Shown here in pieces: positions 7,319 through 61,363 of a stretch of 64,000 bases of DNA. The notes under the pieces were generated by a model. It did not search any database. It had not been told where the DNA came from and was given only the letters and a program-made list of their open reading frames with translations. Where the stretch lies: the NCBI GenBank assembly GCA_903873165.1, contig CAIQNQ010000103.1:8387-72386 (forward strand). The letters run 5' to 3'. The first letter of the stretch is position 1. The number at the start of each line of letters is the position of its first letter. Source of the stretch: an uncultured Methylococcaceae bacterium (GTDB lineage Bacteria; Pseudomonadota; Gammaproteobacteria; Methylococcales; Methylomonadaceae). The translations under genes and the position numbers were made by a program.

Positions 7319-7345
7319 TTACATGAAATATCATATAAATAGTCA

Positions 7346-27541: not shown

Positions 27542-27586
27542 AGCACAGTGCTTTTTTTATGCTCATCTTTGTTGGAGTAATAGTCT

Positions 27587-28801: not shown

Positions 28802-29301
28802 CCGATACAGTATTTGAAAATATACGCAAAGAGTGCCTGAGGATTGAAGAAGACGTTCTTCATTCGGGAAAAAGTCACTGCAATGCATCCGCCATGTGGT
28901 CATGGATTCATTATTTGATAGGCATACCTATGACAATTTTTGCAGCATGGGCCGGAATAGATGCTTTCAGTGAAAATTCACAGTTCTCAGGTTATTTGTC
29001 ATTAATAACAGCGACCTTGGCGGCATTACAGACATTTATAAGCCCGAGCGACAAATCATCAAAGCATAAAAGTGCCGGCACTGAATATTTCAGACTTAAA
29101 AACCAAACGCGGATATTTCGAGAAATTGAACTCGATGAAAGCGACAAAACTGAAGCCAAGAAAGCGATATGTCTACTTGCGCAGAATCGGGATGATTTAA
29201 ACAGTATTTCTCCTTCCATACCTTATTTGGCCTTTTGGTTGGCCCGCAAAGGAATCAATCGAGGGAATGCAGTTTATAACGTAGATAAAGGAGCGAATTA
29301 A
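28798..29301 (+). CDS. SLATT-like 2-TM effector protein
   Basis: 167 aa with two adjacent hydrophobic helices (WIHYLIGIPMTIFAAWAGI and GYLSLITATLAALQTFI), then a charged helical tail with the conserved-looking KHKSAGTEYFRLKN. The ATG overlaps the hsdS stop by 4 nt, and an SMODS-type gene follows immediately. Confidence 0.65.
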   Translation: MTDTVFENIRKECLRIEEDVLHSGKSHCNASAMWSWIHYLIGIPMTIFAAWAGIDAFSENSQFSGYLSLITATLAALQTFISPSDKSSKHKSAGTEYFRLKNQTRIFREIELDESDKTEAKKAICLLAQNRDDLNSISPSIPYLAFWLARKGINRGNAVYNVDKGAN

Positions 29302-30144: not shown

Positions 30145-30151
30145 GATACAA

Positions 30152-30463
30152 GTGCTGATGGTCGCTCAAGAGTATGTGGAAGATTTGTCGTCGTTGCCTG
30201 CGCTTGGCTTGCTTGGTCAGTTAGGCTATCGGTATCTGACACCCTCTGAAAATTTGGCATTGCGTGGTGGTAGAACTACTAAGTTGATCTTGGAAACTGT
30301 ACTGAAAGAACAGCACCGTAAATTCAACTCCATCACTTTCAAAGGTAAACAATACGACTTCAGTGAAGGCAATATCCAGAAAGCCGTTCAGGCCTTAGCC
30401 GATATTCCCTTTGATAGTCTGATGAATACGCGAGAGCAGATTTACGACCCGCTCACCATTTAG
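30152..30463 (+). pseudogene. hsdR: hsdR 5' fragment (about 100 codons), diverged paralog of the N-terminus of the full hsdR
   Basis: The fragment reads EDLSSLPALGLLGQLGYRYLTPSENLALRGGRTTK...NSITFKGKQYDFSEGNIQKAVQALADIPFDSLMNTREQIYD. It aligns residue for residue with EDLSSLLPALTVLEKLGFSYLTPADQLALRGGRTSK...NSITFKGQVTAFTDSNIQKAVQALVGIPFDSLMNTSEQVYD of the 30678 gene. The fragment ends before any nuclease or helicase motif. Confidence 0.75.
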
Positions 30464-30556
30464 AATTTAATCTAGCCAGTATGGGCGCTCCATAAGATTA
30501 CGAGAAAAGATGGTAGGTGAGATTGCAAAAGCAATAGGCAATAAAAAACCCCTAAG

Positions 30557-30584
30557 CGATTTAACTGCAAAAGCAGTTAAATCG
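30557..30584. repeat. 12-bp perfect stem hairpin (CGATTTAACTGC aaaa GCAGTTAAATCG) just upstream of hsdR
   Basis: Read directly from the sequence. No T-tract follows it. Confidence 0.8.
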
Positions 30585-30677
30585 AAAGGAGCCGTGTTGA
30601 TGACCATTCTACTTAATCGACACAACTAAGCAAGTTTTTAATAAAAATCGGAATTGCTCGCCTACAGGAAGCGCACT

Positions 30678-33600: not shown

Positions 33601-33875
33601 GGGTGATTAAAGAACCACTAAGCGAGTATCAAATTCCGGGCTTAACGCCTGAGTTGTTTGCGGCTGAAACGGCCTTAAAGCTAGAAGATATTATTTCTGA
33701 ACATAAAATTAGGGATTGGATAAAAAATCAGGATGTTAATAATGTGATTTTAAATGAGCTGGAAGACTATCTTTTTAGTTTGAAAGGTCGTTACGAACTG
33801 GCAATGGACTTAGATCTTATTGAGCGTATCACTCATCAAGTGCTTGCTATAGCAAAACGTAGAGATGGTAAATGA
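30678..33875 (+). CDS. hsdR: Type I restriction enzyme R subunit (endonuclease/helicase)
   Basis: Nuclease motif PDIVLFVNGIPLVVIECK, Walker A HTTGSGKSLTMV and DEAH-type motif VDESHRSQ. The ATG at 30678 (MSINDYLEDL) is preferred over the TTG at 30654. Confidence 0.93.
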   Translation: MSINDYLEDLSSLLPALTVLEKLGFSYLTPADQLALRGGRTSKCVQESILTQQLQKINSITFKGQVTAFTDSNIQKAVQALVGIPFDSLMNTSEQVYDLLTLGKSLEQTIDGYTKSFSLHYIDWKHPENNVFHVCDEFILERRNSKQTRRPDIVLFVNGIPLVVIECKRPDLKDAIEQGISQHLRNQRGDEIPELFTYAQILLSLSQNKALYATTGTPAKFWALWKEEDKDAQENYLHDLINTPVSLEFKNRLFAERDVQQRQAMETLWQSGQRTPSPQDKALHSLLRPERLLELIYQFIVFDNKEKKICRYQQYFAVAATLNRVNQRKGDAPRPGGVIWHTTGSGKSLTMVMLAKALVLAPAIQNPKIVLVTDRIDLDDQIYKTFHACGKPVVQAKTGEHLLELIAHNKASIITTIIDKFESASRKRKISDASSNIFVLVDESHRSQYGVSHAKMQNVFPNACYIGFTGTPLLKKEKTTAAKFGGFIHKYTMNQAVADGAVTPLLYEGRMSELQGDQAQIDRWFERITKDLSNEQKADLKKKFRREEELSKSEQRLSEIAYDIGQHFKSNYRGTGKKGQFAVTSKATALRYKKYFDEFGDVSVEVIISPLDTREGNTSVDEDTLEDIQVFWKSMMAKYGNDEKYQESIINAFKYSDDPEILIVVDKLLTGFDAPRNTVLYLDKRLKEHNILQAIARVNRLFEGKDFGLIIDYRGIFGELNEAIDTYSALENEGFDPEDIEGTLTDITEEIKLLPQRHTNVWEVFKEVSNQKDLEAMQLHLEPEDRRQRFYDCLAAFTKTLQLALANAKFQDETPPKKIAVYKDDLKYFLNLRQAIKQRFGESVDYSSYEQQIRNMVNKYIGADAVKQLIAPVNVFAIDEFEKEIASIEGDAAKADAIASRIKKTITEKMEEDPALYKRLSEMIDEAIAEHRAKRLSDIEYLERIRKTLTELRGKSSSDLPEILSYHDEAKAFYGVIKEPLSEYQIPGLTPELFAAETALKLEDIISEHKIRDWIKNQDVNNVILNELEDYLFSLKGRYELAMDLDLIERITHQVLAIAKRRDGK

Positions 33876-34591
33876 GTGAGGTTTTATTAAATGAGAGAAA
33901 ACAATCGGTCTTGTTCGGTCAGGCTGAAATTACTTATGTCGTTAATTGGAGTGATCGTAAGACCCTGGCAATTCATGTGTATCCAGATGGGGAAGTTGTT
34001 GTTGATGCACCGATAGCAGTGAGTCAGATTGCCATTGCCCAAAAAGTTAAAAAACGAGCCGCATGGATTTTTAAACAACAAATGCAATTTGCCGCCTATC
34101 CGCCCGTCATGCCAGAAAGACGCTATGTATCTGGCGAATCTTATCGCTACTTGGGGCGGCAATATCGGTTGTTGGTAAAGCAAGGCAGCGGCGAGCACGT
34201 CAAACTTATTAAAGGTCGAATTGTGGTTGAGACGGCTGATCCTGAAAATGCAAATAAAGTTAAAGCCCTGCTGCTCTATTGGTCAAGGTCAAGAGCACAA
34301 ATTATCTTTTCTGAGCGTTACCATATTTGTCTGAAGTTGGTTGCCAAATTGGGTATAGAGCACTATCAGGGTTTTCAACTCCGATCAATGCCTAAACGTT
34401 GGGGTAGTTGTACCGGTCAAGGCAATATCATGTTAAACCCTGAACTGATTGCCGCGCCTAAAGAGTGTATCGATTATGTGATTACACATGAGTTTTGCCA
34501 TTTAAAAATACGCAATCACAGTCCGGTATTTTATAAATTGTTAGCTAAGGTGATGCCTGATTGGGAAATTAGGCGTAAACGCTTAAATTAA
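33872..34591 (+). CDS. DUF45/YgjP-like HExxH metal-dependent hydrolase
   Basis: 239 aa with a C-terminal HEFCHL zinc motif. It overlaps the hsdR stop by 4 nt. DUF45 genes commonly follow hsdR. Confidence 0.8.
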   Translation: MSEVLLNERKQSVLFGQAEITYVVNWSDRKTLAIHVYPDGEVVVDAPIAVSQIAIAQKVKKRAAWIFKQQMQFAAYPPVMPERRYVSGESYRYLGRQYRLLVKQGSGEHVKLIKGRIVVETADPENANKVKALLLYWSRSRAQIIFSERYHICLKLVAKLGIEHYQGFQLRSMPKRWGSCTGQGNIMLNPELIAAPKECIDYVITHEFCHLKIRNHSPVFYKLLAKVMPDWEIRRKRLN

Positions 34592-44824: not shown

Positions 44825-46200
<1,376 letters not shown>

Positions 46201-46400
46201 GCTAATAACAATAGTGAAATAAAGACCTCTTAAGAGGATTTGTTAAAACACTGATTCCTTAGGGGCCAGAGCATCAATCAAGGGTTTCTCAGCGGGGAGT
46301 CGCTTTTTTTGATAAAGATTCCCTGGGTTCTTACTTGAAAATTTTGCACAAACTACGCGACTTTTACTGCTTTAATTGCCCCTAATTTATTCTACTTCCG

Positions 46401-46577: not shown

Positions 46578-46603
46578 AAAAGTGTGTCATATGACACAGT
46601 TTT
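46578..46603. promoter_or_regulatory. palindromic regulator-binding site S1 (AAAAG TGTGTCAT ATGACACA GTTTT)
   Basis: The core at 46583-46598 is a perfect 16-bp palindrome. It is one of six related copies in the window. Confidence 0.7.
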
Positions 46604-46609
46604 TTTAAC

Positions 46610-46635
46610 AAAAGTGTGTCATATGACACACTTTT
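46610..46635. promoter_or_regulatory. palindromic regulator-binding site S2 (perfect 26-bp palindrome AAAAGTGTGTCAT ATGACACACTTTT)
   Basis: Read directly from the sequence. The centre-to-centre distance from S1 is 32 bp. Confidence 0.7.
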
Positions 46636-46694: not shown

Positions 46695-46710
46695 TGGCGC
46701 TATTTTTGCA
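46695..46710 (+). promoter_or_regulatory. sigma54-type promoter (TGGCGC-TATTT-TTGCA)
   Basis: GG at 46696-97 and GC at 46708-09 have the canonical 12-nt offset. The match to TGGCAC-N5-TTGCW is near-consensus. It lies about 50 nt upstream of the ATG at 46760. Confidence 0.6.
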
Positions 46711-47509: not shown

Positions 47510-47682
47510 TTTTTGAATCTAATATGACGGATTTAAACGGATGGTAGATTAATAAATGGGAATTTTATTAAGGTATTTTTCCAAAATCAAGAATACTTAA
47601 TATTTTGAGTACAAAATGATTAAGCATACCGTTGAAAAGGCATTGGTCTTTTTAATTTTAGTAATAAGTGTGGAGTTTAGAA

Positions 47683-48384
47683 ATGCAAAAAATTAAATTA
47701 GTAAAGGCAATGTCTTTGGCATTATTGAGTTTAACTACAGTGGATATAGCTTCTGCTCATGATTTGTTGGGTGGATCATTGGCTGCCGCGCAAAACTCGG
47801 TAGATGTTTTTACTACTAGTTGTTTTAGTTGGAATGGTGCGGTGCCCAATGCAGCAACGGGAATTACTTATGGCCCATTACCCGCAGGTGAAGTTGTAAC
47901 ACCAGCGAGGGGGTTTAAAGCGGCTATTAGTTTGACTGCTGGATCAACAGTGACGGCTACAATTGGTTATACCTCAGTAGGCAATATCAATGGTAATGCT
48001 GTAGGTAATAATGTATTACCAGCATCACCAGCACCTAAAGCACTCGTGGTTACTGATACTACTTTAGGTTCTGCATGGAATAAAACTAGCACGATTCTTC
48101 CTGAGTTTAATGCGTTGGGCGTGTCACCTAAAGGATTTGGTCCTGCCGGCTTTTTAGATATTACAGGTGTAGCACCTACAAAAACAAACAACGGGAATGG
48201 TGAGTACGTTATTGTGATCTCTCATGCTTCTGCGGTGGCAACTAAATATGATTTTCTAGGTCATTGTCAAACTGGCACTAGCGGATCTCTTACTGGTATT
48301 CATACAGGTCAAGGTGCAAATTTTGTAAAAGCAGGAAATCAAGTTGCGCCAACTTTTGATTATGATCAACTTATTGATCAATAG
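47683..48384 (+). CDS. secreted protein of unknown family, predicted to mature with N-terminal His (copy 1)
   Basis: The ATG at 47683 has a GGAG SD. The signal peptide MQKIKLVKAMSLALLSLTTVDIASA is followed by HDLL. It shares the conserved islands TSCFSWN, ISHAS, GHC, GIHTG and a terminal LIDQ with the 57258-57971 paralog. Confidence 0.65.
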   Translation: MQKIKLVKAMSLALLSLTTVDIASAHDLLGGSLAAAQNSVDVFTTSCFSWNGAVPNAATGITYGPLPAGEVVTPARGFKAAISLTAGSTVTATIGYTSVGNINGNAVGNNVLPASPAPKALVVTDTTLGSAWNKTSTILPEFNALGVSPKGFGPAGFLDITGVAPTKTNNGNGEYVIVISHASAVATKYDFLGHCQTGTSGSLTGIHTGQGANFVKAGNQVAPTFDYDQLIDQ

Positions 48385-49324: not shown

Positions 49325-49543
49325 ATGAAAGTTAAAATACTCATCATTCTATTATTCATTGGTTTTTTTCTTACAGGTTGCGCTGAAGTAAAACCTTGGC
49401 AGCGGGGTAATTTAGCTAAGTCCATCATGGCTAATGACCCATCTCCTTTACAATCTTCTTTTAGACAGCATAATTATTCCAGCCGAGAAGCGGCAGGTGC
49501 TACTAGTTCTGGAGCAACTGGTGGTGGTTGTGGCTGCAATTAA
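49325..49543 (+). CDS. DUF4266 family lipoprotein (copy 1)
   Basis: MKVKILIILLFIGFFLTGC lipobox, VKPWQRGNLAK, HNYSSREAA and a terminal GGGCGCN, which is the characteristic DUF4266 pattern. Confidence 0.8.
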   Translation: MKVKILIILLFIGFFLTGCAEVKPWQRGNLAKSIMANDPSPLQSSFRQHNYSSREAAGATSSGATGGGCGCN

Positions 49544-52343
49544 GTCAAAATCTAAATATGTCAAAAGTGCTACTTTACAAGCTTTATGCCTATCAGCATT
49601 GACATTGCCAGGCCTGTCCATTGCTGATAATGCTGCAGGTACTGATGCCAGTATGCATGGTAAATCAAATACCAATTCAGCAAGTGAGACACCTAAACAA
49701 AGTCTTAAGCAATCAGATGCTTTTGATGAAATTGATTACCAATATACTATTTATCAAGAGGGTAAGCGTGATACTTATGATACAGCGCCTTACACTATTG
49801 ATAATAACGGCATCATGACTTCAACTGGGCCTTATAAATACCAAACAAATTTACAACCTATCACTGTGGATAGTGAGCATGCCTCCAGTCGTTTTCGGTT
49901 TGGTGATAGAACACGCTTTGGGTTTAATTATGTACAGGATGTTTGGTCAGGTGCTACGCCTTGGTTTACTACGGCGGCGGGCAATTTTATGATTAAAGCA
50001 AATCCTCAATCTTTAGTGGGAGCTACTTATTGGGCTAATGGCGCGGGTGGTGGGCAGTTATTTGATGCAAAGAATAAGCCATTAACCTTGGCCGCTTTTG
50101 ATACGAATACGAGTACTATTCTCGCAACCAGTCCTTCTCGTATTCAACATGTATTAGGTTATGCCTCACCTGAAATGCGTAATCAGGCGGATTTCAAGTT
50201 AGGATATGACTTTGATCATGCTGCATTGGATATTGGTGGTGGATTATCTGTTGAACGTGATTATCTATCGCAATTTGGAAATTTGGCAGGGCGCATGGAC
50301 TTTAATCAAAAACGTACAACCTTAAATTTTGGGTTGAGTTATACCAATAGTGCGACACACGCTACGTCCACCACAAATTCTTCTAGTGGAACAGTATTAG
50401 ATCCCAGTGTTAATGTCAGTCAACACCAAGCTATGTCGATGTTACCTGGTGATGTTCCTGTTTATGAGCAAATTATTAAAGGTACGCGAGAGGATGGAAC
50501 TATTTCTTTAGCACTTAGCCAAGTGTTAACTAAAAACTCAGTGCTTACTAGTGGTGTTGGTTATACACGTAGTAGTGGTTATATGAGTAATCCTTATAAA
50601 GCAGTCATGGTTTATAATATGGATCCTAATTGGCGATCGGATGGCGGCTCTGGAGCCGTGCTGCCTGATACGGCTTTTCCGGGAGTGCAAATGGCAACGA
50701 GTGGTGGCCCAGTTGCGGAACAGCGGCCGCATTTACGAAATCAGTTAAACTGGGATATCTCTTATCGGCACTATATTGAACCTTTAAATGCTGCCGGCAA
50801 AGTTGGGTACAACTTTTTTCATGATGATTGGGGTATTAACGCACACAGTTTCGATGCTGAATGGCGACAAGCCTTAGGTGATAGTTGGACACTTACGCCG
50901 CATACCCGATATTATTCGCAATCATCGGCTAGTTTTTATACCCCCTACCTTTTATATACTAATGGGGATGTGAGTCCACAAGATCCTGGTTATTTAACAC
51001 CTCTTGCAAGTCAGCATTTTTCTTCTGACCAACGCTTATCATCTTATGGTGCCATTAGTGGAGGGATAACTTTGGGTAAGCAATTAGCGCAAGGTTTAAA
51101 CCTTGAGTTAGGTTACGAATATTATGTCCATAAAGGCGCACTGGCAATAAGTAGTGGCACAGGAGATTACGCTGATTATCATTATTATGCAGCAAGTGCC
51201 ACTATGCGAGTTAATCTCGATCAACTGTCGTTAAGAGGCGGCGCTTATGATAATTACGGACTCTCGGATTGGTTAGGTAATCTGTTTGGTGGAAACGATG
51301 TTGAATCTATTAGCGCTAACTCAAGTCATCAACATAATCATGGTCTAGCTCCTGCGGGGGTTATGTTCTCTCACATGCTTTCTCATGCAGGTGAAACTAT
51401 GGTGGGTTATCGTTATATGCGCGATACGCAGAGTGGTAATTATTTACAGGGCGCTCAAGCGTTAAGTTCGACTCAGCTTACTAATTCTCAGGCTTGTATG
51501 CCATTGGGTCAATGTACTATGCTTTCTAATAGCATGGACATGAATATGCACATGGTTGATTTGATGTATGCTCCCACGGATTGGCTAAATTTGATGTTGA
51601 TGCCGCAGTTTATGTCAATGTCGATGGAAATGAATATGCCAGTTGCTATGTCCATGACTGCAATGGGTGGCGGAATGAATATGCCGGCTTTACGTGATTT
51701 TCAAGGCAGTGGTGGATTTGGTGATACTGGGGCGTATGCTTTATTCAAGCTATGGGATGGTGATGGACAACATTTACATCTAACTCAAGGTATCAGTGCG
51801 CCGACGGGTGCAACGAATATTCGTCAGAGTTCTCCGGGTGGTCCAGAATATTATTATTCTTATGGCATGCAACTAGGTAGTGGTACTTGGGATTATAAGC
51901 CTAGTTTGACCTATACGGGAATTTTGAATGATTGGTTCTGGGGTGGGCAGGTGAGTGGTACCCATAGATTGGAAAATTTAAATAATCAAGGTTATAGGCA
52001 GGGTGATATTTTCCAGACCACGGCATGGGGTGGCTATAAATTGACGCCTTGGCTTAGCTCTACCATACGTGCGGTTTATACTGCACAAAGCAAAATGGTT
52101 GGCACTCATACAAATGTGAATACAGTTGCTGGAGTACCTATGTGGATGCCTGAAGACAATCCAAGTAATTATGGTGGCTTCTTTGTTGATGTCGGCTTCG
52201 GTGCGACAGTGAGTATGCCTTATGGCAAACTGGCTGGTCATTCTTTAGGGTTTGAATGGTTGCAACCTGTTAGCACTAATTTCCAAGGCTATCAGTTAGA
52301 TAGAGCAGGGGCTTTGTCTGCGACATGGAATTATAAGTTTTAG
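49530..52343 (+). CDS. DUF3570 domain protein fused to a C-terminal His/Met-rich beta-barrel-like domain (copy 1)
   Basis: DUF3570-like motifs are present (VQDVWSGATP, GYMSNPYKAV, EQRPHLRNQ, FHDDWGINAHSF, RYYSQSSASFY, SSDQRLSSYG). A roughly 390-aa extension follows, with a Met-rich tract and a terminal aromatic residue (..WNYKF). The GTG start at 49530 (VAAIKSK..) is chosen by analogy with the paralog start MAVIKTP. This gives the same 14-nt overlap with the DUF4266 gene. Confidence 0.7.
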   Translation: MAAIKSKSKYVKSATLQALCLSALTLPGLSIADNAAGTDASMHGKSNTNSASETPKQSLKQSDAFDEIDYQYTIYQEGKRDTYDTAPYTIDNNGIMTSTGPYKYQTNLQPITVDSEHASSRFRFGDRTRFGFNYVQDVWSGATPWFTTAAGNFMIKANPQSLVGATYWANGAGGGQLFDAKNKPLTLAAFDTNTSTILATSPSRIQHVLGYASPEMRNQADFKLGYDFDHAALDIGGGLSVERDYLSQFGNLAGRMDFNQKRTTLNFGLSYTNSATHATSTTNSSSGTVLDPSVNVSQHQAMSMLPGDVPVYEQIIKGTREDGTISLALSQVLTKNSVLTSGVGYTRSSGYMSNPYKAVMVYNMDPNWRSDGGSGAVLPDTAFPGVQMATSGGPVAEQRPHLRNQLNWDISYRHYIEPLNAAGKVGYNFFHDDWGINAHSFDAEWRQALGDSWTLTPHTRYYSQSSASFYTPYLLYTNGDVSPQDPGYLTPLASQHFSSDQRLSSYGAISGGITLGKQLAQGLNLELGYEYYVHKGALAISSGTGDYADYHYYAASATMRVNLDQLSLRGGAYDNYGLSDWLGNLFGGNDVESISANSSHQHNHGLAPAGVMFSHMLSHAGETMVGYRYMRDTQSGNYLQGAQALSSTQLTNSQACMPLGQCTMLSNSMDMNMHMVDLMYAPTDWLNLMLMPQFMSMSMEMNMPVAMSMTAMGGGMNMPALRDFQGSGGFGDTGAYALFKLWDGDGQHLHLTQGISAPTGATNIRQSSPGGPEYYYSYGMQLGSGTWDYKPSLTYTGILNDWFWGGQVSGTHRLENLNNQGYRQGDIFQTTAWGGYKLTPWLSSTIRAVYTAQSKMVGTHTNVNTVAGVPMWMPEDNPSNYGGFFVDVGFGATVSMPYGKLAGHSLGFEWLQPVSTNFQGYQLDRAGALSATWNYKF

Positions 52344-54139: not shown

Positions 54140-56884
54140 TCAAAACCCAACGCCCCACGTTGCAGTTAATGCGCCACTGCGTTCTAATTGATAGCCGTTA
54201 TAGTCGGTGTGTACCGGTTGCAGCCATTCAAATTTGAGGGTATTGCCGGCAAAAGTACCTGTGGGTACTGTCACATTAATGCCCAAACCGACATCCACAA
54301 ATTGACCGCCGTAGTTACTGGTAAATTGGCTAGGCATTCGATAGTTGCCGAATTGGTTATAGGGGATTGTACTGCCATCAGTCATGACTACGGGCTTGAG
54401 TACCCCATGAATACTGTCCTGCCAGGTATAGATGCCACGTACGTTAGCAGACAACCAGTTATTCCATTGATAACCACCCCATATGCTGCTCTGGAAGATA
54501 TCACCTAAGGCATAACCGGATTCATTGTGTTTATCTAAGCGTTTGGTACCGGTAGCCTGAGCGCCCCAGATAATGGCTTCCATTGCGCCACTGTAGGTCA
54601 AGCTGGGTTTAAGATCCCAGGTGCCACTGCCCAGTTGCATGCTGTAATCGAGTGGAATGATTGCAGCGTTAGAAGTGTTCTTTTTCTGCATCAGTGAGAC
54701 ATTGCCGGTGGGCGCGGTGCCGCCTAGGCTTAGGGTGAGCTGATGACCGTGTTGTTCAAATAGTTTGATCAGCGCATACAAACCGGTATCGCCAATGCCG
54801 CCGGATTGTTGATTCATTACGGGCATATCGAGGCCCATGCCAGTAGTGCTGCGTTTCATCTCTGACTGGTTCATTTTCATATCCATATCCGTCCATTGCG
54901 GCATTAGCATTAGTGTTACCCGGTCAGTGGCGGCCACCATCAGCTCCAGCATGTGCATATTCATAGTCATAGTGCTGGGTAACATCATGCAGGTTTGATC
55001 AGCGCAACCCTGTGCAATGGCCGTATCGTTACTGGCTGTCGACGTGCCAGACAGCATAGAGCCAGATTGTTCGTTACGCATGTACCGGTACCCCGCCATC
55101 ATATCGCCGGCATTATCCAGCGCATGATCAAACATGATACCGGCTGGCGTAATGGCATGGCTGGCATGGTGATGAGCTGTGCTGCTGCTATCGTTGCTAC
55201 CTCCATTAAAACGCAAAGCACCCAGATTGATTTTAAGTGCGGCATTGGCCGTCCAATAATCAAAATTATTGAACGCCTGTTCACTACCGCTACCACCACC
55301 CAACTTTAAGGCACTCTGATGCGTGTAATATTCAAACCCAGCTTGCAGACTGATGCCTTTGGCGAATTGTTTTGCTACGATGACTCCACCACTCAGAGCA
55401 CCAAAACCTGCCAAACGCTGGTCGCTGGAATAATAATCCGGTAGGGCTTTGGAATAGATGACATTACCTGAAGCATCATACCCTGACATGGTTGTCGTAA
55501 AATACGGGGCATAAAAATCCGCTGCCGATTGCGAGTAATAACGTACTTTGGGGGTGATTGTCCAGCCGGCACCTACCGGTTGCGCCCAATCGGCCTCAAA
55601 CGTATGAGAATTAATGCCCCAATCATCATGTGCCCCCGTGTAACGAGTATGCAGCGCAGCGTTGAGCGGCTCAATATAATAATGGTAGCCCAGATTGCCG
55701 TTGACCTGATTGCGCTCATGCGGGCGAGCCTCCCATTGACCTGCTCCGCTGTACATTAATGGTTGGCTTGGATCCTGACCGGGGTTGGCGTGAAACACAT
55801 ACACCGCCTTGTAAGGATTACTTAAGTAGCCAGTGCTATGGGTAAAACTCGTTCCCACATCCATTACGGCGTTTTGGGTCAGAATCTGGGTTAGGCCCAA
55901 ATTACCAGCGACATCTTGACGAGTACCGGTCAGGGTAGTTGTTTGTGCACCAATCATCCCTCTGTTAGGAAGGCTTGTTGTTACCTGATGATAAGTACCT
56001 TCGGTCTGAGGACTGTAGAAGTTACGCGTTGTAGTATTGCCATTGACGGTGCTGCCGTTAAAGGAATAGGGGCCACCAGCCATGTAAGTCACAGCAAATG
56101 GATCCAGGGTGGCGTGGGTATAACTGTTGGTATAGCTTACGCCGGCATTGAGGCTGGTGCGTTTTTGGTTAAAATCCAGGCGCAAACCCAGATTACCGAA
56201 GCGCGAGTCATAATCATTTTCTACCGAATAGCCACCGCCGCCGTTAACGCTGGCGTTATCCCAATCATAATCCAGTTTAAAGTCGCTTTGTTTGCGGGTT
56301 TCTGGCGAGGCGCCGACCAATACATTAGTCACCTGGTTGACTATAGCACCGGGTGTAAACGTACTACTCCCCGTATTAGGATCATAATGATAGTTTTGGC
56401 TATGAATATTATTCTGTTTGTCTATATAGAAAGGATTAGAATTTGTGTTACGTAACAGAGGTGAAGCACCAGTAATGGCATTAGTGACAGGGTTCGATAC
56501 CGGACTCGCTGCATTCGACACGACCGGCGCAGAGGCAATCGGTGTGGCTCCGGCCCAGGTATCCTGAGTGTAATTAAACGCAAACTTGACCCGGTCAGTC
56601 AGGTGAACACGAGAACTACCATGTAAGCCATCTACTTCGATCGGGTTTAAATAATTGGGTGTTTTACTGGACGTGAATGTGCCAGTAGGATTTACATTGG
56701 TATAAATATTGCGGTAACCTTCCTGGTAATGGCTGTACTGAAAGTCCACTTCATCTTCATCGGCTGCGTAAGCTGGGGCTTGCATTAGGCCGGGCAGGAT
56801 TAAGGCCGCTGCGGTTAATGCTTGTAAATTAGACTTGCCACGAGAGGGTGCTTTGGGTTTTTCGGGGGTTTTAATTACAGCCAC
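54140..56884 (-). CDS. DUF3570 domain protein fused to a C-terminal His/Met-rich beta-barrel-like domain (copy 2)
   Basis: 914 aa and collinear with copy 1, sharing FNYTQDTWAGATP, GYLSNPYKAV, EARPHERNQ, AHDDWGINSHTF, RYYSQSAADFY and SSDQRLAGFG. The tracts HHHASHAITPAGIMF and MMLPSTMTMNMHMLELM...MLMPQWTDMDMKM follow. It ends ..WGVGF. Confidence 0.75.
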   Translation of the reverse strand: MAVIKTPEKPKAPSRGKSNLQALTAAALILPGLMQAPAYAADEDEVDFQYSHYQEGYRNIYTNVNPTGTFTSSKTPNYLNPIEVDGLHGSSRVHLTDRVKFAFNYTQDTWAGATPIASAPVVSNAASPVSNPVTNAITGASPLLRNTNSNPFYIDKQNNIHSQNYHYDPNTGSSTFTPGAIVNQVTNVLVGASPETRKQSDFKLDYDWDNASVNGGGGYSVENDYDSRFGNLGLRLDFNQKRTSLNAGVSYTNSYTHATLDPFAVTYMAGGPYSFNGSTVNGNTTTRNFYSPQTEGTYHQVTTSLPNRGMIGAQTTTLTGTRQDVAGNLGLTQILTQNAVMDVGTSFTHSTGYLSNPYKAVYVFHANPGQDPSQPLMYSGAGQWEARPHERNQVNGNLGYHYYIEPLNAALHTRYTGAHDDWGINSHTFEADWAQPVGAGWTITPKVRYYSQSAADFYAPYFTTTMSGYDASGNVIYSKALPDYYSSDQRLAGFGALSGGVIVAKQFAKGISLQAGFEYYTHQSALKLGGGSGSEQAFNNFDYWTANAALKINLGALRFNGGSNDSSSTAHHHASHAITPAGIMFDHALDNAGDMMAGYRYMRNEQSGSMLSGTSTASNDTAIAQGCADQTCMMLPSTMTMNMHMLELMVAATDRVTLMLMPQWTDMDMKMNQSEMKRSTTGMGLDMPVMNQQSGGIGDTGLYALIKLFEQHGHQLTLSLGGTAPTGNVSLMQKKNTSNAAIIPLDYSMQLGSGTWDLKPSLTYSGAMEAIIWGAQATGTKRLDKHNESGYALGDIFQSSIWGGYQWNNWLSANVRGIYTWQDSIHGVLKPVVMTDGSTIPYNQFGNYRMPSQFTSNYGGQFVDVGLGINVTVPTGTFAGNTLKFEWLQPVHTDYNGYQLERSGALTATWGVGF

Positions 56885-57092
56885 AACCGCCTCCTTGTGA
56901 GTTATTTGCCGCTGAAGCTGCCTCGCGGCTACCGTAGTTATGCTGACTCAACCCGCTTTGCAAGGGATAAGGATCCAGTGCCATGTGTGGTTTGGCCAGG
57001 TTGCCGCGCTCCCAGGGCTGAACGCTGGTGCAGCCAGTGAGTACTAGCAGTACGTAAACCAGTAATAGGTGATGTAAAACTATTTTGTCCAT
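56871..57092 (-). CDS. DUF4266 family lipoprotein (copy 2)
   Basis: MDKIVLHHLLLVYVLLVLTGC lipobox, VQPWERGNLAK, HNYGSREAA and a terminal GGGCGCN. It overlaps the DUF3570 start by 14 nt. Confidence 0.8.
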   Translation of the reverse strand: MDKIVLHHLLLVYVLLVLTGCTSVQPWERGNLAKPHMALDPYPLQSGLSQHNYGSREAASAANNSQGGGCGCN

Positions 57093-57257
57093 GTATTCCT
57101 TTGAGTAAAGCGTTGCAATCTGCGATAACAATTAAGCCAAAAACTTTTTTAGAAAAAGCCGGTAACTCGTAGGAGCTACCGACTTTTTGGTAATGCAATA
57201 ATACCTACCGTTGTTTAACTTAAGCAGGCCTGTGTTATCGTTGTGATGACTATGGAT

Positions 57258-57971
57258 TTATTGGTCAATGAATTGATTCCAATCAGCTGCTGTAGTACCG
57301 GAACCATTGGGTACATCAATAAAGCTGTTGGGGTTAGCGCCAGTATTCACCCCAGTACCTGTGTGAATACCCACAGAAGAATCGGGCGCTGGGAGTGCGC
57401 CTACCGCCACGTTTTCGCAGTGAAAAGTGGCTAGATAATTAGTCGCCACACCCGGAGTATGAGAAACGGCGACGGTGTAAGTGCCGTTAGCATCTGCGCC
57501 TAAATTATCTTTTACCTGTGCCCAGGCGCCAGCATTGGTTCCGTCGCCCCATAAATTAGGAATAACAGTGCCATCGACCAAAATCCCACCGCTGTTAACC
57601 GGAACCCCTGTTGTTGAGGATACGCCAGCTAAAGGGGTATTTCCGAATGGAGAGCCGACGGATACTTTTACTTTAGAGGTGGCGCCACTAAGCGCAGTCG
57701 GAGTGCAAGTTGCATCGAGTGTTGAACAGCGATGATACGCCCTGGCCACAAAGCGTTTAGCAGCGGCTGTCGATTCGCCGCCGGCTGCCGCTGCACCTGC
57801 TGCGTTCCACGTAAAGCAACTGGTGTGATACACGTCAATCTCAGAGGCTGTGCCAGCATCCGCCGCCGAGAGTGTTCCAGGTGCTGTATGCGCCATACTT
57901 ACATTAGACAGGCTTATTGCACATAGCATAGCAGTTGATAATAATGTTAGTTTTAGAGTATTATTTTTCAT
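57258..57971 (-). CDS. secreted protein of unknown family, predicted to mature with N-terminal His (copy 2)
   Basis: The signal peptide ...LSNVSMA is followed by HTAPG. It shares the conserved islands TSCFTWN, VSHTP, FHC, GIHTG and a terminal FIDQ with copy 1. Confidence 0.65.
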   Translation of the reverse strand: MKNNTLKLTLLSTAMLCAISLSNVSMAHTAPGTLSAADAGTASEIDVYHTSCFTWNAAGAAAAGGESTAAAKRFVARAYHRCSTLDATCTPTALSGATSKVKVSVGSPFGNTPLAGVSSTTGVPVNSGGILVDGTVIPNLWGDGTNAGAWAQVKDNLGADANGTYTVAVSHTPGVATNYLATFHCENVAVGALPAPDSSVGIHTGTGVNTGANPNSFIDVPNGSGTTAADWNQFIDQ

Positions 57972-57992
57972 AGGAATCTCAATTTAATGGAT

Positions 57993-58031
57993 TAAAAAAA
58001 TGCCGACGCGCTATTTCGAGTTGCGCTCGGC
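57993..58031 (-). terminator. intrinsic-terminator-like hairpin between HEAT2 and the His1-protein gene (minus strand)
   Basis: The minus strand reads GCCGAGCGC..loop..GCGCGTCGGC followed by CATTTTTTT. The T-tail ends about 22 nt before the ATG at 57971. Confidence 0.5.
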
Positions 58032-58118
58032 CGGTACACTTATCACCATTGATAGGTGTACTTGCTTTTGCTGTCGGCGTACGGACTAGGTACGTCGACT
58101 ACAAAATCTTTGCTAGGT

Positions 58119-59009
58119 TTATTGTTGTCCATTACGTTCGCGGTAACGAAGCAACATACCTAATTTATCAGCCGCGTAATTGCTGACACTTTTATCACTA
58201 TCATTCTGGGCCTGTTCCAGCAGATCCTGATTATTGGCTGCACTTTCAATTGCCGCCATGCGCACGCTACTGTCGGTATCCTGTAAACCACGACTAATAA
58301 TTTCCTTAGCATTGTCTTTGTCTAATGCCGCCATTGATGACAAGGCCTGACTGCGGATGGTGGGGTTTTTATCCCCCATCGCCTCGGTAAGTGCTGCACG
58401 CACATTTGGATCATTAATATTGGCGCCTGCCGTTAAATAACTGAGGGCATTTTTACGTTCTTCTGCGGTTTTGGCTTCTTTAAGACCGGTTAATAGGGCA
58501 TCGGAGTATTCTTTATTGGGTGGTTCCGGTTTTCGTTGGGAATTATCGATACCAGATTCAGTTTTTATGGATACGGGTGTGGATTCAATCGTTAAGGTCT
58601 GACAACTACCAACACTGGAACCTAGTAGCCAAAATTCTGCGGGTTTGCCGGGTTCCGGTTTGTTTGCTACCAAGCCAATTTGCTTGGCCAGCAAGCAATC
58701 CATTAATTGCCAAACGTTTGTGCCAGCGCAAGTCGCCGTTACCGGCGCTTCTGGTAATGCGGAGTAATGAAAAATTGCACCAGTTTTACTGGCAATTTCA
58801 TTAAGGATTTCCCCCAGGGGCATTTGCCTTACTTCTAAACTGATCGGGCTGTCTGCTTGTGTCGATAACACAAGTTGAATGCTGGGTTGTATCGTCGGCG
58901 TTACCACGGGTTTATCTTTTACCGTTTCAGCAAGCAAGGGATTGCTAGACAAAAAGCTCCCAACCATTGAAACGACCAAGCTTATATATTGCGTATATTT
59001 AATGATCAA
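58119..59009 (-). CDS. secreted HEAT-repeat protein (copy 2)
   Basis: TTG start with a signal-like N-terminus. The C-terminal half carries HEAT-like repeats (MGDKNPTIRSQALSSM, LQDTDSSVRMAAIES, DSDKSVSNYAADKL). Confidence 0.65.
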   Translation of the reverse strand: MIIKYTQYISLVVSMVGSFLSSNPLLAETVKDKPVVTPTIQPSIQLVLSTQADSPISLEVRQMPLGEILNEIASKTGAIFHYSALPEAPVTATCAGTNVWQLMDCLLAKQIGLVANKPEPGKPAEFWLLGSSVGSCQTLTIESTPVSIKTESGIDNSQRKPEPPNKEYSDALLTGLKEAKTAEERKNALSYLTAGANINDPNVRAALTEAMGDKNPTIRSQALSSMAALDKDNAKEIISRGLQDTDSSVRMAAIESAANNQDLLEQAQNDSDKSVSNYAADKLGMLLRYRERNGQQ

Positions 59010-59103: not shown

Positions 59104-59934
59104 TTAAAAAGCCCGCACAGCCCGGACAGGAGCATAGGCATTTTTAGGAGCGTATCCAGCGTCACCGTAGTAGAAGTCGTAAGTCCAGGCCCCCAAGTCG
59201 TCGCTTTCTGAAGAACTCCAGAAGGAAGTACTGTCTGATTTAGTAATACCTCCTACCCCATGATCCGCTAAATTCTTATACATTAGAGTAAGTTCGTTAA
59301 TTGATGGTAAATACCAATCACTTTTATTGGCTGTTAAATAAAGATCAGCTTGCTTGGCTGCACCCGTTGAGCAAGCTCCAAGCATGGCTGTGGTGTTCGC
59401 CTTACCAGCACCTAAAGCTCTAGCAGACCAAGCCGCTACCTGTGGAATTGAGGTGTTGGTAATATTACACCACTGGGTAACTGCTATATCAGTCGGAGCG
59501 GCTTCCAGATAATTAAAGCCTGGATATTCATCGTTATAATCAACAAAGAATATCCAGCCCCCACCGGGACCTACCTCGCCAACTTTACAAGCCACTTTGC
59601 CACTGGCACCACAAGTCATAGAATAGGCAAATGAACTTCCAGAGCCTGAAGAACCTGCAGGCCCCATAGCCCCTGTAGCCCCCATAGCCCCTGTGTCACC
59701 TTTTGCGCCAGTGGCCCCCGTCATTCCTATCGGTCCCTGAACTCCTGGCTCACCTTTAGCTCCTTTTGGGCCTCTTGGTCCAATAGGTCCTCTTGGACCT
59801 CTAGTTCCAGCGGACGATGCCGTTGCTAGCCCTTGAACGCCCACAGCGTCTGTTGCATCAGCAACACTCCATAATGATGACAATATCAGTGCTGACATAA
59901 TCATTGGTATTTTTAATAACGATAATATTTTCAT
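59104..59934 (-). CDS. secreted collagen-like triple-helix repeat protein with DUF1566 (Lcl-type) C-terminal domain
   Basis: Signal peptide, then about 19 uninterrupted G-X-Y triplets ([40 protein letters not shown]...). The C-terminal domain contains [14 protein letters not shown], which is typical of DUF1566. Confidence 0.75.
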
Positions 59935-60031
59935 AAATGTTTTCTCAATTTAAGATGCGAATTTAACTTTTAAACCAACTGATAAAGTGGGTAGGATTAA
60001 CCTTATGGAACGTTAAGGCTAATGTTAACTA

Positions 60032-60047
60032 AGCAGGTTACGTGCCA
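60032..60047 (-). promoter_or_regulatory. sigma54-type promoter (minus strand TGGCACG-TAAC-CTGCT)
   Basis: The reverse complement of 60032-60047 has canonical GG/GC spacing and a near-consensus -24 box. It lies about 100 nt upstream of the collagen-like gene start at 59934. Confidence 0.6.
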
Positions 60048-60117
60048 TATTTATAAAAATATTTATAAATGACATATTACTGTAATATTGAGTCTGTTTT
60101 TGCGAAGGTTATTTTAT

Positions 60118-60130
60118 TAACCAATTGATA
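60118..60130 (-). promoter_or_regulatory. IHF-consensus-like site (minus strand TATCAATTGGTTA)
   Basis: Matches WATCAANNNNTTR and lies between the palindrome pair and the sigma54 element. The motif carries little information. Confidence 0.25.
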
Positions 60131-60218
60131 TATAATAATATTTACAGGAAGGTAAATAAAAATATATTATTTGAATAAGTTGTCAATTAAATCGGAATTA
60201 AATTAACTTTTTTAAAGC

Positions 60219-60234
60219 AGTGTTATATGACGCA
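60219..60234. promoter_or_regulatory. palindromic site A (AGTGTTAT ATGACGCA)
   Basis: Three mismatches to TGTGTCAT ATGACACA. It is flanked by AAAGC and GTTTT. Confidence 0.55.
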
Positions 60235-60248
60235 GTTTTATAGATAAG

Positions 60249-60264
60249 TGTGTCATATAACACA
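60249..60264. promoter_or_regulatory. palindromic site B (TGTGTCAT ATAACACA)
   Basis: One mismatch to the consensus. The centre is 30 bp from site A. Confidence 0.65.
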
Positions 60265-60267
60265 AGT

Positions 60268-60933
60268 TTAGCCATCCAGAATATCTATAACTGTTTCGCA
60301 GCTAATTTCGTTTTCAGTGCTATTGCCTATAAAATAGGCCAATCTTTCAATAGCCTGCCAATAAATAGCTGTGTTGATAAATTCAAAAGCTTCCCTAAGT
60401 AGTCGCGTTATGTTTTCTGAATGACGCGACTTATCCGCAATAAAATCATCGAGATACTCCTGAATATTTTCTAGATCAGAACTACCGCCATATTGGTGTA
60501 AGGTATTTATCTCGATATTTTGTAAATCAAAACGCTGCCCACTTTTAAGGGCTAGATATTTGGCTTCTGCTAATGGCCCCGCTAGTAGATTGACAATATC
60601 TGCCTCAAATGCGCTTTTAATACTATCTTTTTCGCTATTACTATAAAACATACTGCTTTCGATGATATTAAACGGTAGGTTTTGTATTAAGCGGCCTTCG
60701 ATCACTTGGGCAATATAATGTTTATCCCTAGGATCAATTTGATTTGAATTCGATAGTATGGATGATGAATTGCTTCTCAGATTTATCTGAAAATAAACGG
60801 GGGGTAAGTTTTTTTGTTGATTATTAAGATGTATGGCGGCCGCATGACCCGCTTCATGAAAAGCAGTTTTTAATAATAAGTCTTTATCAAAAAGGCTGTG
60901 GGTATGGTAGTTAATTGGGTGATTTCGTTTCAT
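60268..60933 (-). CDS. stand-alone M41 (FtsH-peptidase-like) HEAGH zinc metalloprotease domain protein
   Basis: 221 aa. AFHEAGHAAAIHL resembles the FtsH HEAGHA motif, and YGGSSDLENIQEY resembles the FtsH G.S.D...A segment. There is no AAA domain, TM segment or signal peptide. Confidence 0.55.
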   Translation of the reverse strand: MKRNHPINYHTHSLFDKDLLLKTAFHEAGHAAAIHLNNQQKNLPPVYFQINLRSNSSSILSNSNQIDPRDKHYIAQVIEGRLIQNLPFNIIESSMFYSNSEKDSIKSAFEADIVNLLAGPLAEAKYLALKSGQRFDLQNIEINTLHQYGGSSDLENIQEYLDDFIADKSRHSENITRLLREAFEFINTAIYWQAIERLAYFIGNSTENEISCETVIDILDG

Positions 60934-60951
60934 TAAGTCGCCTCAAACTAT

Positions 60952-60978
60952 AAAAAAAAGCGGTCATAATGACCGCTT
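60952..60978 (-). terminator. intrinsic-terminator-like hairpin in the 5' leader of the M41-like gene (minus strand)
   Basis: 9-bp perfect stem AAGCGGTCA / TGACCGCTT with a 3-nt loop. A T8 run follows on the minus strand and ends about 18 nt before the ATG at 60933. Confidence 0.5.
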
Positions 60979-61079
60979 GAGGGGGAGGATCTTTAAACTC
61001 TGATACCTTTAGGGGCGGAGCGCCTATCAAGAGTTGCATACAGAATAGACCTGAAAAAGATATTTGGAAATGTGGCAAA

Positions 61080-61093
61080 TTGTCGCGCGACAA
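61080..61093. promoter_or_regulatory. 14-bp perfect palindrome TTGTCGCGCGACAA, flanked by GATATTTGG direct repeats
   Basis: Read directly from the sequence. A related half-site, AATGTCGCGA, lies at 61094-61103. GATATTTGG occurs at about 61059 and 61102. Confidence 0.4.
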
Positions 61094-61107
61094 AATGTCG
61101 CGATATT

Positions 61108-61123
61108 TGGCATAGTTACTGCT
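61108..61123 (+). promoter_or_regulatory. sigma54-like element (TGGCAT-AGTTA-CTGCT)
   Basis: GG at 61109-10 and GC at 61121-22 have the canonical spacing. It lies upstream, not downstream, of palindromes C and D, about 240 nt from the ATG at 61364. Confidence 0.4.
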
Positions 61124-61202
61124 TTATATTCCTTTCTTAATTTTTAAAGTCTCGGTTAATTGAGAGTTTTCAAGGCATACAAGCCATTAATTTAAATAGA
61201 GC

Positions 61203-61218
61203 TGTGTCATAAGACACA
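61203..61218. promoter_or_regulatory. palindromic site C (TGTGTCAT AAGACACA)
   Basis: One mismatch to the consensus. Confidence 0.65.
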
Positions 61219-61232
61219 ACTTTTAGCAAAAG

Positions 61233-61248
61233 TGGGTGATATGACGCA
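61233..61248. promoter_or_regulatory. palindromic site D (TGGGTGAT ATGACGCA)
   Basis: Three mismatches to the consensus, an AAAAG 5' flank, and a centre 30 bp from site C. Confidence 0.5.
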
Positions 61249-61302
61249 TAGTTCGTTAAGGCTGGGTAGCAGTCAATAGCACCCTATTTAAATAAGAATG
61301 AT

Positions 61303-61331
61303 TTGCATTTGCATATTTCTAAGGTTAGAAT
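61303..61331 (+). promoter_or_regulatory. candidate sigma70 promoter (TTGCAT-17 nt-TAGAAT)
   Basis: Hexamers with a 17-nt spacer, about 30 nt upstream of the ATG at 61364. Confidence 0.35.
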
Positions 61332-61363
61332 CTAATTAACTAACAAATAGTGGAGATAGGTGT

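Follow-up and report, generated by a model that had tools for sequence, protein, structure and literature searches.

Several described systems come close to the one reported here. NifA-type promoters, such as that of Klebsiella nifH, carry a TGT-N10-ACA dyad, then a site for integration host factor (IHF) and then a -24/-12 element for sigma-54, and NifA itself is composed of GAF, AAA+ and helix-turn-helix (HTH) domains. PspF is an enterobacterial AAA+ activator devoid of a regulatory domain and restrained by a membrane-linked partner. In methanotrophs, MmoR and sigma-54 control the soluble methane monooxygenase, which is on at low copper. The CRP site is TGTGA-N6-TCACA. We analyzed a 64-kb stretch of contig CAIQNQ010000103.1 from an uncultured Methylococcaceae bacterium, hereafter the window, and in particular its segment 60032-60264, located upstream of a gene for a collagen-like protein. 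Judged from its sequence, this segment is very probably the control region of a sigma-54 promoter with its enhancer. The window contains two diverged and convergent paralogous gene sets, arm 1 and arm 2, whose proteins share 29-40% identity. Arm 1, on the plus strand, encodes in order a HEAT-repeat protein, a 238-aa secreted protein, an FKBP protein, a 969-aa DUF3570 protein and ApbE; arm 2, on the minus strand, encodes the collagen-like protein, a HEAT-repeat protein, a 237-aa secreted paralogue (His1), DUF4266, a 914-aa DUF3570 protein and an FKBP protein.

The region resembles NifA promoters by its dyad located 100-250 bp upstream, the IHF-type site in between and the GG-N10-GC element, and the arm 1 palindrome TGTGTCATATGACACA formally fits TGT-N10-ACA. 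Unlike in NifA sites, conservation extends here beyond the outer triplets to a 16-bp core, TG-G--ATAT--C-CA, which occurs in phased pairs. No nif genes were found behind at least 30 promoters examined, and the activators encoded next to the pairs have no GAF domain. With the CRP site, the palindrome shares its length of 16 bp, its 5-6-5 dyad symmetry and its TGTG/CACA arms; it differs by the conserved ATAT centre and by the position of the paired sites far upstream of sigma-54 elements. As a CRP/FNR operator, for which a position at -41.5 to -90 of a sigma-70 promoter would be expected, the palindrome was also rejected, positions 5 and 12 being T and A in 93% of the symmetrised sites, which lie 100-300 bp upstream of sigma-54 elements. 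Three features exclude both the NifA and the CRP class: the ATAT centre, the T/A at positions 5/12, and the regulon content combined with the type of adjacent activator.

The candidate activator described below is, like PspF, a short protein made of AAA+ and HTH parts, and the sigma-54 promoters carry two upstream sites and an IHF site as in the PspF/PspA system. Unlike in that system, the partner would be an integral six-helix DsbD_2 protein (motif HCxGxCG), fused to the activator in some lineages, and the regulon looks like one of metal acquisition, not of membrane stress. The MmoR system has in common with our predictions its sigma-54 dependence, its low-copper switch and its methanotroph hosts, but no mmo genes occur here and the candidate activator is of another family and far shorter. 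Gene pairs for a CorA-like protein and a di-haem peroxidase, as in corA-corB/mopE loci, carry the same motif and sigma-54 element, whereas arm 2 encodes no CorA and is linked to these loci by control sequences only. Finally, with DUF3570 and DUF4266 among their products and ApbE in arm 1, the arms recall the flavinylation clusters in which DUF3570 is a flavinylated ApbE substrate and DUF4266 its usual companion (Meheust et al. 2021, PMC8238504). They differ from these clusters by their HEAT, His1 and FKBP genes, by a Met/His-rich domain of about 380 aa on the DUF3570 proteins, by their predicted sigma-54 control and by having no thioredoxin-like gene or DsbD in the window.

The predicted control region upstream of the collagen-like gene

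The following predicted elements compose the control regions of the window; positions relative to the start refer to the predicted transcription start.

60047-60032, minus strand: sigma-54 -24/-12 element TGGCACGTAACCTGCT, predicted start at about 60021
60130-60118, minus strand: IHF-consensus site TATCAATTGGTTA, centre at about -103, between enhancer and promoter
60219-60234: second, weaker enhancer site AGTGTTATATGACGCA, centre at about -205.5, 30 bp from TGTGTCATATAACACA
60249-60264: distal enhancer site TGTGTCATATAACACA, centre at about -235.5, no mismatch to the core TG-G--ATAT--C-CA
46583-46630: enhancer of arm 1, composed of two perfect TGTGTCATATGACACA sites spaced by 32 bp and centred at about -130.5 and -98.5
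46695-46710, plus strand: arm 1 sigma-54 element TGGCGCTATTTTTGCA, 64 nt past the pair, the start codon of HEAT1 following 50 nt later
61203-61248: third pair, TGTGTCATAAGACACA and TGGGTGATATGACGCA, 30 bp apart

For the sigma-54 elements, each GG-N10-GC site was rated at the eight other consensus positions of TGGCACG-N4-TTGCW. The element TGGCACGTAACCTGCT has the GG and the GC and matches seven of the eight other positions, making it the top site of the 64-kb window and the sole one at that level, with 0.2 sites as good expected per block-shuffled window on both strands. The 333-bp spacer 59935-60267 contains no other GG-N10-GC site. The original prediction had placed a sigma-54 element, read as TGGCACG-TAAC-CTGCT, at 60047-60032 of the minus strand, about 100 nt before the collagen-like ATG; it is indeed there as the best match of the window, and the distance to the start codon at 59934 measures 98 nt. 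With the -12 C at 60033, transcription is predicted to start at about 60021, giving a leader of about 87 nt.

Upstream of this element, two 16-bp dyads lie 30 bp apart, that is three helical turns, at -205/-235. Both palindromes of the original prediction, at 60219-60234 and 60249-60264, were found with this spacing of their centres, and they are farther upstream than in arm 1 (-205.5/-235.5 vs -130.5/-98.5), as it had noted. The distal site lies 4 bp past the stop codon of a 221-aa protein gene; the palindrome core is bordered by A/T runs. With up to three mismatches, the motif TGTGTYATATRACACA has 7 matches in the window vs 1.33 expected, a number reached in 0 of 100 shuffles, and six of the seven form three pairs with a 30-32 bp spacing, all intergenic (46583/46615, 60219/60249 and 61203/61233). 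A GC-independent core, TG-G--ATAT--C-CA, was defined from the sites of homologous loci fetched by protein similarity and of the corA loci described below; with at most one mismatch, it also gives 7 window matches, six of them being the three pairs, vs 2.2 in shuffles. The ACGCA half-site variant of the site at 60219 recurs at 61233 of the window and in loci L015 and L011. The window supplies three copies of a short, well-defined putative operator, two of which adjoin the predicted sigma-54 promoters of arms 1 and 2. The third pair, the methanotroph and copper context and the candidate activator are additions to the original prediction.

The site TATCAATTGGTTA, located between pair and promoter, is an exact match to the IHF consensus WATCAANNNNTTR and is predicted to bind IHF. 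The claim of an IHF-like site at 60118-60130 therefore stands as to the match, which is weak evidence when taken singly, the consensus occurring 12 times in the whole window vs 6.0 expected. Among related loci, the IHF consensus was found between pair and promoter 10 times vs 0.67 expected, mostly where the gap between the two is long, and this enrichment lends some weight to the otherwise weak single match of the window. Closely similar IHF-like sequences occupy the same position in L011 (TATCAATTGCTTA) and L125 (TATCAATAGGTTA).

Eighteen homologous loci were retrieved through the His1 secreted protein, independently of the DNA motif. L001/L002/L018, L003-L006 and L017 contain two or three sites: TGTGTGATATGACACA and TGTG(T/C)CATATCACACA are spaced by 20 bp, the third site lies about 90 bp beyond them, and TGGCATAYATAATGCT, of the form TGGCATA(T/C)ATAATGC(T/A), is located about 45 nt before the HEAT start codon. 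L012/13 contain TGTGTGATTTGGCACA and TGCGTGAAATAACATA 31 bp apart, about 100 bp ahead of TGGCATGGCATGTGCT, and in L011 two degenerate sites with a spacing of 31 bp are followed by the IHF-like sequence TATCAATTGCTTA, comparable to TATCAATTGGTTA of the window, and then by TGGTATGAATAATGCT. An element equivalent to TGGCACGTAACCTGCT is kept at L001, L003, L011, L012, L017, L008/9 and L016, weak at L015 (4/8) and absent from L014. Pairs are present in two regions of L015. For L007, the upstream DNA is missing from the locus.

A metagenome collection was scanned with the pattern TGTGTNATATNACACA-N(2-32)-TGNGNNATATNACNCA, which gave 110 stretches, and 55 distinct compact pairs were retained, compactness being required to drop tandem satellites. 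A sigma-54 element was called when GG and GC were accompanied by at least 5 of the 8 other positions within 350 bp, oriented away from the pair. Such an outward element was present for 37 of the 55 compact pairs, vs about 0.17 expected per locus from the same-contig background. The gap between the pair and the -24 T falls into two classes, one of 51-66 nt with a tight peak at 63-66 and one of about 130-300 nt; in the window, arm 1 (64 nt) belongs to the 63-66 peak and arm 2 (171 nt) to the long class. Among the related loci, the sites are spaced by 20-22 bp in 47 cases and by 30-31 bp in 9, corresponding to two or three helical turns.

Taken together, these sequence elements, their conservation and their co-occurrence indicate that a sigma-54 promoter, a shared enhancer and a regulon probably provide the best overall explanation of the region. 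The proposal that arm 2 is under the same enhancer as arm 1 also holds at the sequence level, the same motif adjoining sigma-54 elements in many related loci. On these grounds, the palindrome is predicted to serve as the common operator of a sigma-54 regulon that has been conserved among the methanotrophs of the Methylococcales. The operator is conserved and apparently undescribed; the promoter layout itself is of a known type.

Several observations weigh against this explanation. The scan pattern fixes most motif positions, so that the logo is partly circular, and some of its matches are unrelated 20-bp satellites. The site at 60219 deviates from the motif at two positions and the third pair of the window departs from the usual geometry. 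Conservation is patchier in arm 2-type loci than in arm 1-type loci: L015 has a pair followed by a PEP-CTERM gene, in a position like that of the collagen-like gene, and by HEAT2, with a sigma-54 match of just 4/8; L008/9 are less clear, their sigma-54 element TGGCATATACCTTGCT being accompanied by a single core site, located 294 bp upstream; in L016 the sigma-54 element is present and the palindrome site is lacking; and L014 shows a degenerate pair without a -24/-12 element.

The satellites just mentioned are tandem arrays of the 20-bp unit ACACATGTGTGATATGACAC in L087, L096 and similar short contigs; they have no link to a sigma-54 promoter and are false positives. In L014, a group II intron reverse transcriptase/maturase gene (6424-7743) is found directly upstream of the HEAT2 control region, and this gene may account for the missing sigma-54 element.

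Gene content of arm 2 and extent of its predicted transcript

The genes and structures of arm 2 are as follows, in the predicted direction of transcription.

59104-59934, minus strand: collagen-like gene, ATG at 59934; 276 aa with a signal peptide, Gly-X-Y repeats, and Collagen and Lcl_C domains
59076-59052, minus strand: GC-rich 10-bp hairpin without clear U tract, in the collagen-like/HEAT2 spacer
58119-59009, minus strand: HEAT2, the HEAT-repeat protein of arm 2
57994-58031, minus strand: terminator-like hairpin (58031-58002) with U7, the last of three in the HEAT2-His1 spacer
57258-57971, minus strand: His1 protein, secreted, with a signal peptide ending A|H and conserved Cys and His
56871-57131, minus strand: DUF4266, a small secreted protein
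54140-56884, minus strand: DUF3570 protein, extended at its C terminus by a Met/His-rich part of about 380 aa
53335-54093, minus strand: FKBP2, a peptidyl-prolyl isomerase with FKBP_N and FKBP_C domains, the final gene of arm 2

The original prediction proposed that one sigma-54 transcript could cover the genes from the collagen-like gene to FKBP2. The open reading frame (ORF) map agrees with its statement that all genes downstream to 53335 are co-oriented, on the minus strand. The single transcript is qualified by two structured spacers, one of them terminator-like. The collagen-like/HEAT2 spacer (94 nt) folds at -29.9 kcal/mol (z -4.2), and the HEAT2-His1 spacer (147 nt), with its three hairpins, at -43.7 kcal/mol (z -4.45), the U7 hairpin ending about 20 nt ahead of the His1 start codon. 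The sigma-54 promoter might mainly drive the collagen-like gene and perhaps HEAT2, leaving His1 to FKBP2 largely insulated, with a far lower or an independent expression. The stable hairpin after the collagen-like gene and the U7 hairpin before His1 speak for such an insulation, as do the hairpin and T run found at the same place in L008, L014 and L015, and in arm 2-type loci different genes stand between the promoter and HEAT2 (a collagen-like one here, a PEP-CTERM one in L015), suggesting a modular first cistron. However, the 20 nt or so that separate the U tract from the start codon of His1 leave no room for a promoter, and no sigma-54 element or additional palindrome was found in the interior of arm 2. 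Moreover, arm 1-type loci have the same gene set behind one promoter with short spacers (63 nt in L001), and a conserved hairpin fits attenuation or transcript processing equally well. We therefore consider insulation of the distal genes rather unlikely. As no promoter fits after the U tract, attenuation or processing is the likeliest role of the hairpins, which would set unequal levels of the first genes and of the rest.

All arm 2-type loci (57972-58118 in the window; L007, L008, L014, L015 and L016) have a long, strongly structured HEAT-His1 spacer. Its hairpins are partly conserved, GTACACCTATCAATGGTGATAAGTGTACC of the window corresponding to GTGCCCATATCAATGGTGATATGTGTACC in L007, and have no Rfam match; a search of the full 64-kb window at gathering thresholds returned zero Rfam matches. 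This spacer may contain an undescribed cis-acting RNA element. Comparable structures are also found ahead of ORFs in L125 and ahead of the 221-aa gene of the window.

The composition of arm 2 is distinct, as had been noticed: its GC content of 0.475 and its GC content at third codon positions (GC3) of 0.35-0.50 are above those of the backbone and of arm 1 (GC 0.40; GC3 0.24-0.41). The GC content of the arm 2 control spacer is just 0.25. A foreign gene cluster could join a host regulon simply by carrying the shared enhancer. In sample ERZ1426828, a relative with a 98% identical His1 protein has an identical gene order.

The His1 family, represented twice in the window (47668-48384 and 57258-57971), has conserved C52, H184-C185 and H203-T-G-x-G. 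Since the signal peptide ends Ala|His, the mature protein would begin with His, and the residue pattern, as read from the sequences, recalls a histidine-brace-like copper site. This rare family comprises 17 clusters in 5.8 billion proteins and, across 185,579 species genomes, 5 loci, all in metagenome-assembled genomes (MAGs) of Methylococcaceae, which identifies the source of the window as a gammaproteobacterial methanotroph. An AlphaFold model from a 15-sequence alignment had a mean predicted local distance difference test score of 57.8, below what is usable for a fold search, and PDB sequence searches with the His1 family, the 221-aa protein and a 321-aa protein of L015 returned nothing usable; for the latter, the same search gave no sequence match to CorA or MopE. 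The C-terminal extensions of about 380 aa are His/Met-rich (HHHASHA, MNMHMLELM, MPQWTDMDMKMN) in both DUF3570 proteins (49434-52343 and 54140-56884), which suggests a metal-binding outer-membrane module fused to the flavinylated domain.

Regulon content and the candidate activator

The means by which methanotrophs perceive copper and switch the genes for its acquisition have, to our knowledge, been in question for decades. The first genes behind the predicted promoters encode HEAT proteins, TonB-dependent receptors, CorA-like proteins, c-type cytochromes, a redoxin, RTX proteins and a YtkA-like protein. The CorA-like Cu(I)-binding protein was assigned to PF18252 (E 2.5e-44), and a second family of secreted proteins with His first after the signal peptide is also found behind these promoters. 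Three corA loci (L131-L133) were fetched by protein similarity alone, without the motif; CorA and MopE of cultured strains were not among the matches of this CorA homologue search. In L131/132 (GC 0.63), TGCGGCATATCGCTCA and TGCGGCATATGCCGCA are 22 bp apart, with TGGCATGAATCTGGCT 52 bp further on, followed by corA and a di-haem peroxidase gene. L133 contains one site and TGGCATGAATCTAGCT. A further region with a site and a sigma-54 element is present in L015, ahead of a cluster whose last gene encodes a di-haem peroxidase.

CorA and CorB are co-transcribed and repressed by copper in Methylomicrobium album BG8 (PMC3912023), and putative sigma-54 promoters were reported in copper-responding clusters of Methylococcus capsulatus, with no operator or regulator given (PMC4831470). 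Since corA-corB and TonB receptors belong to the regulon, its most likely signal is copper starvation, and from these sequences we lean, with modest confidence, toward control by copper limitation. The His-first and Met-rich proteins of the two arms are consistent with copper starvation. A point on the other side is that we infer the copper link from the gene content of the regulon. The searched literature on DUF3570, DsbD_2, and sigma-54 with copper in methanotrophs contained no description of this operator or activator, and no operator or regulator for gammaproteobacterial genes of the corA/mopE type was found in it. Copper limitation as the signal predicts that the HEAT/His1/FKBP/DUF4266/DUF3570/ApbE systems belong to the copper response.

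No activator gene was detected in the window or its homologous loci by a six-frame scan for GAFTGA and Walker A motifs and by Pfam searches on nearly all ORFs of at least 100 aa. Genes for enhancer-binding proteins adjoin the pair in five pair-bearing metagenome loci (L046, L105, L032, L091 and L075). In L046/L105, a 566-aa protein has a six-helix DsbD_2 domain (HCxGxCG) at its N terminus and also contains a sigma-54 interaction domain and HTH_8; its gene is divergent from a TonB receptor gene, and the common spacer contains the pair and AGGCAT-N5-TTGC(T/A). In L032/L091, the DsbD_2 and activator parts are adjacent in-frame ORFs with a single stop codon between them; a TonB receptor gene lies beside them, and the pair and CGGCACGGCAATTGCT are present as well. 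Counting L134, the DsbD_2-linked activator adjoins the pair in five loci (L046, L105, L032, L091 and L134) of three lineages, and in three of the five the pair is in the activator's own divergent spacer. The fused form was found in L046, L105 and L134 and the split form in L032, L091, L129 and L130. In Methylomarinovum caldicuralii (AP024714.1), the divergent spacer between the genes for the fused activator and the TonB receptor contains TGTGTGATATGCCGCA-N5-TGTGGCATATCACACA and, 65 bp later, TGGCATTTTGTTTGCT. In Methylococcus and another MAG, a DsbD_2 gene immediately precedes a gene for a 313-aa activator, next to pyrF.

All named relatives of the DsbD_2-linked activator are from Methylococcales and are either fused (about 560 aa) or 313-aa proteins made of AAA+ and HTH_8 with no regulatory domain. 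As it is devoid of an N-terminal regulatory domain, the 313-aa activator is presumably controlled in trans by the membrane-linked partner. Of 120 cluster representatives of the activator, 116 have a nearly invariant HTH, GNRSRSARLLGISRDTLLYRMQKY, which fits an operator core kept across genomes with GC contents of 0.37-0.63. On these sequences, we tentatively favour a DsbD_2-linked PspF-like protein, encoded outside the window, as the activator, over one of the response-regulator type; this assignment we infer from gene adjacency. Against it, the window and the 18 homologous loci contain neither rpoN nor a gene for an enhancer-binding protein, the activator loci of Methylococcus and L130 have no nearby site, and in L075 a classical kinase and response-regulator activator stand beside the pair and a HEAT gene.

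This last locus could indicate that promoter and enhancer are real and are activated by a response regulator of the classical two-component NtrC type, paired with its sensor kinase. L075 has a GC content of 0.37, like the window backbone, and encodes a kinase of 590 aa, a response-regulator activator of 466 aa and a DsbD_N-like protein, and its order continues with the pair, TGGCACAAAATTAGCA and the HEAT gene. This arrangement was however found in just 1 of the 110 pair-bearing stretches, against the five loci and three lineages of the DsbD_2-linked type, and in at least 13 HEAT operon loci no such regulator is encoded within 10 kb. A response regulator thus appears quite improbable as the general activator.

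With the DsbD_2-linked protein as activator, the arm 2 promoter would work as follows. RNA polymerase with sigma-54 would be held in a closed state on TGGCACGTAACCTGCT, dimers of the enhancer-binding ATPase would occupy the two 16-bp palindromes at about -205 and -235, and an IHF-type bend near -103 would bring the ATPase to the polymerase. ATP hydrolysis would then open the promoter, with a minus-strand start at about 60021, and the transcript would comprise the collagen-like gene first and probably continue through the attenuating spacers to HEAT2, His1, DUF4266, DUF3570 and FKBP2. The activator would be the PspF-like protein of about 313 aa (AAA+ and HTH_8), its activity being set by the six-helix DsbD_2 membrane protein. 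It is possible, and we hold this more tentatively than the identity of the activator, that DsbD_2, through HCxGxCG, senses copper and keeps the PspF-like activator off until shortage, the palindrome being the operator of this copper-starvation regulator of gammaproteobacterial methanotrophs. The regulon content, the gene adjacency, the fused and split forms, the restriction to methanotrophs and the invariant HTH all point in this direction. If true, this activator would turn on corA-corB, TonB receptors, surface cytochromes and the flavin-linked HEAT/His1/DUF3570 systems of the outer membrane, together with the horizontally acquired arm 2. The candidate methanotroph-restricted activator gene pair occurs in cultured strains (Methylococcus, Methylomarinovum caldicuralii), so that a vague question on copper sensing is now testable by defined genetic and binding work.

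Other readings of the palindromes and neighbouring features

The palindromes could also bind a regulator of sigma-70-type promoters, for instance a CRP/FNR-like dimer, the -24/-12 match being then incidental. Their length and symmetry equal those of the CRP site, and sigma-70-like sequences are present as TTGACA-16-TATTTT at 60186-60159 of the minus strand and as TTTGCA-18-TAGAAT past the third pair. Such matches are nevertheless no more frequent here (14) than in shuffles (17.0), the pairs lie 100-300 bp from gene starts and are followed by sigma-54 elements far above chance, nearly all copies have T/A at positions 5/12 where CRP sites have A/T, and an enhancer-binding protein gene adjoins several loci, all of which makes this reading very improbable. 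That the palindromes are a dispersed repeat or chance matches in AT-rich spacers, with no regulatory role, is hardly credible: the low GC content of the spacer, a homologous segment of about 100 bp common to the arm 1 and third-pair regions and the satellites matching the scan pattern would agree with it, but the core is kept across genomes of GC 0.37-0.63 whose flanks differ, and the sites are helically phased and constant in position relative to sigma-54 elements and gene starts.

The third pair is located between the 221-aa gene and an operon for a porin-like protein, an FMN_bind protein and a membrane protein (61364 onward). The sole sigma-54-like element near it, TGGCATAGTTACTGCT (61108-61123, plus strand), is upstream of the pair, which would lie at about +70 to +115 if this element were the promoter. 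A minus-strand sigma-54 element through which the third pair could drive the 221-aa gene is absent from 60934-61363; the pair may control either this gene or the porin-like/FMN_bind operon. The sigma-70-like sequence past the third pair, which can also be read as TTGCAT-N17-TAGAAT, lies about 55 bp beyond it.

The 221-aa protein gene (60268-60933, minus strand) encodes an HEAGH motif and has a weak Peptidase_M41 match (E 0.021); it is preceded by a terminator-like hairpin with T8 (60978-60958). In L125 (12449-13168), a 40%-identical homologue of the 221-aa protein is found behind a triple site, an IHF-like site and TGGCACAGGATTTGCT, and the protein may belong to the same regulon.

The homologous segment of about 100 bp occurs in 46200-46330 and 60935-61075 (core CTGATWCCTTNAGGGGCNNAGC; 2 copies vs 0.01 expected). 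It borders the arm 1 and third-pair control regions, in each case beside a small hairpin, and could be a duplicated boundary or the scar of a mobile element. A leader RNA was rejected for this segment (near 46250 and 61000), its orientation to the neighbouring terminators differing between the two copies.

Elsewhere in the window, two ORFs, 13832-15427 (minus strand, 531 aa) and 20661-21206 (181 aa), have no Pfam match. A defence island (25389-34591) encodes a type I restriction-modification system, with two specificity genes, a methylase and a restriction subunit, and includes a SMODS nucleotidyltransferase gene (29302-30144) and a YgjP-like metallopeptidase gene. Finally, a Gp49-like and HTH_37 gene pair at 7346-8030 has a layout like that of the HigB/HigA toxin-antitoxin system. 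The same pair is present near the arm 1-type operon of L001 and L018, which suggests that the organisms of the window, L001 and L018 are related.

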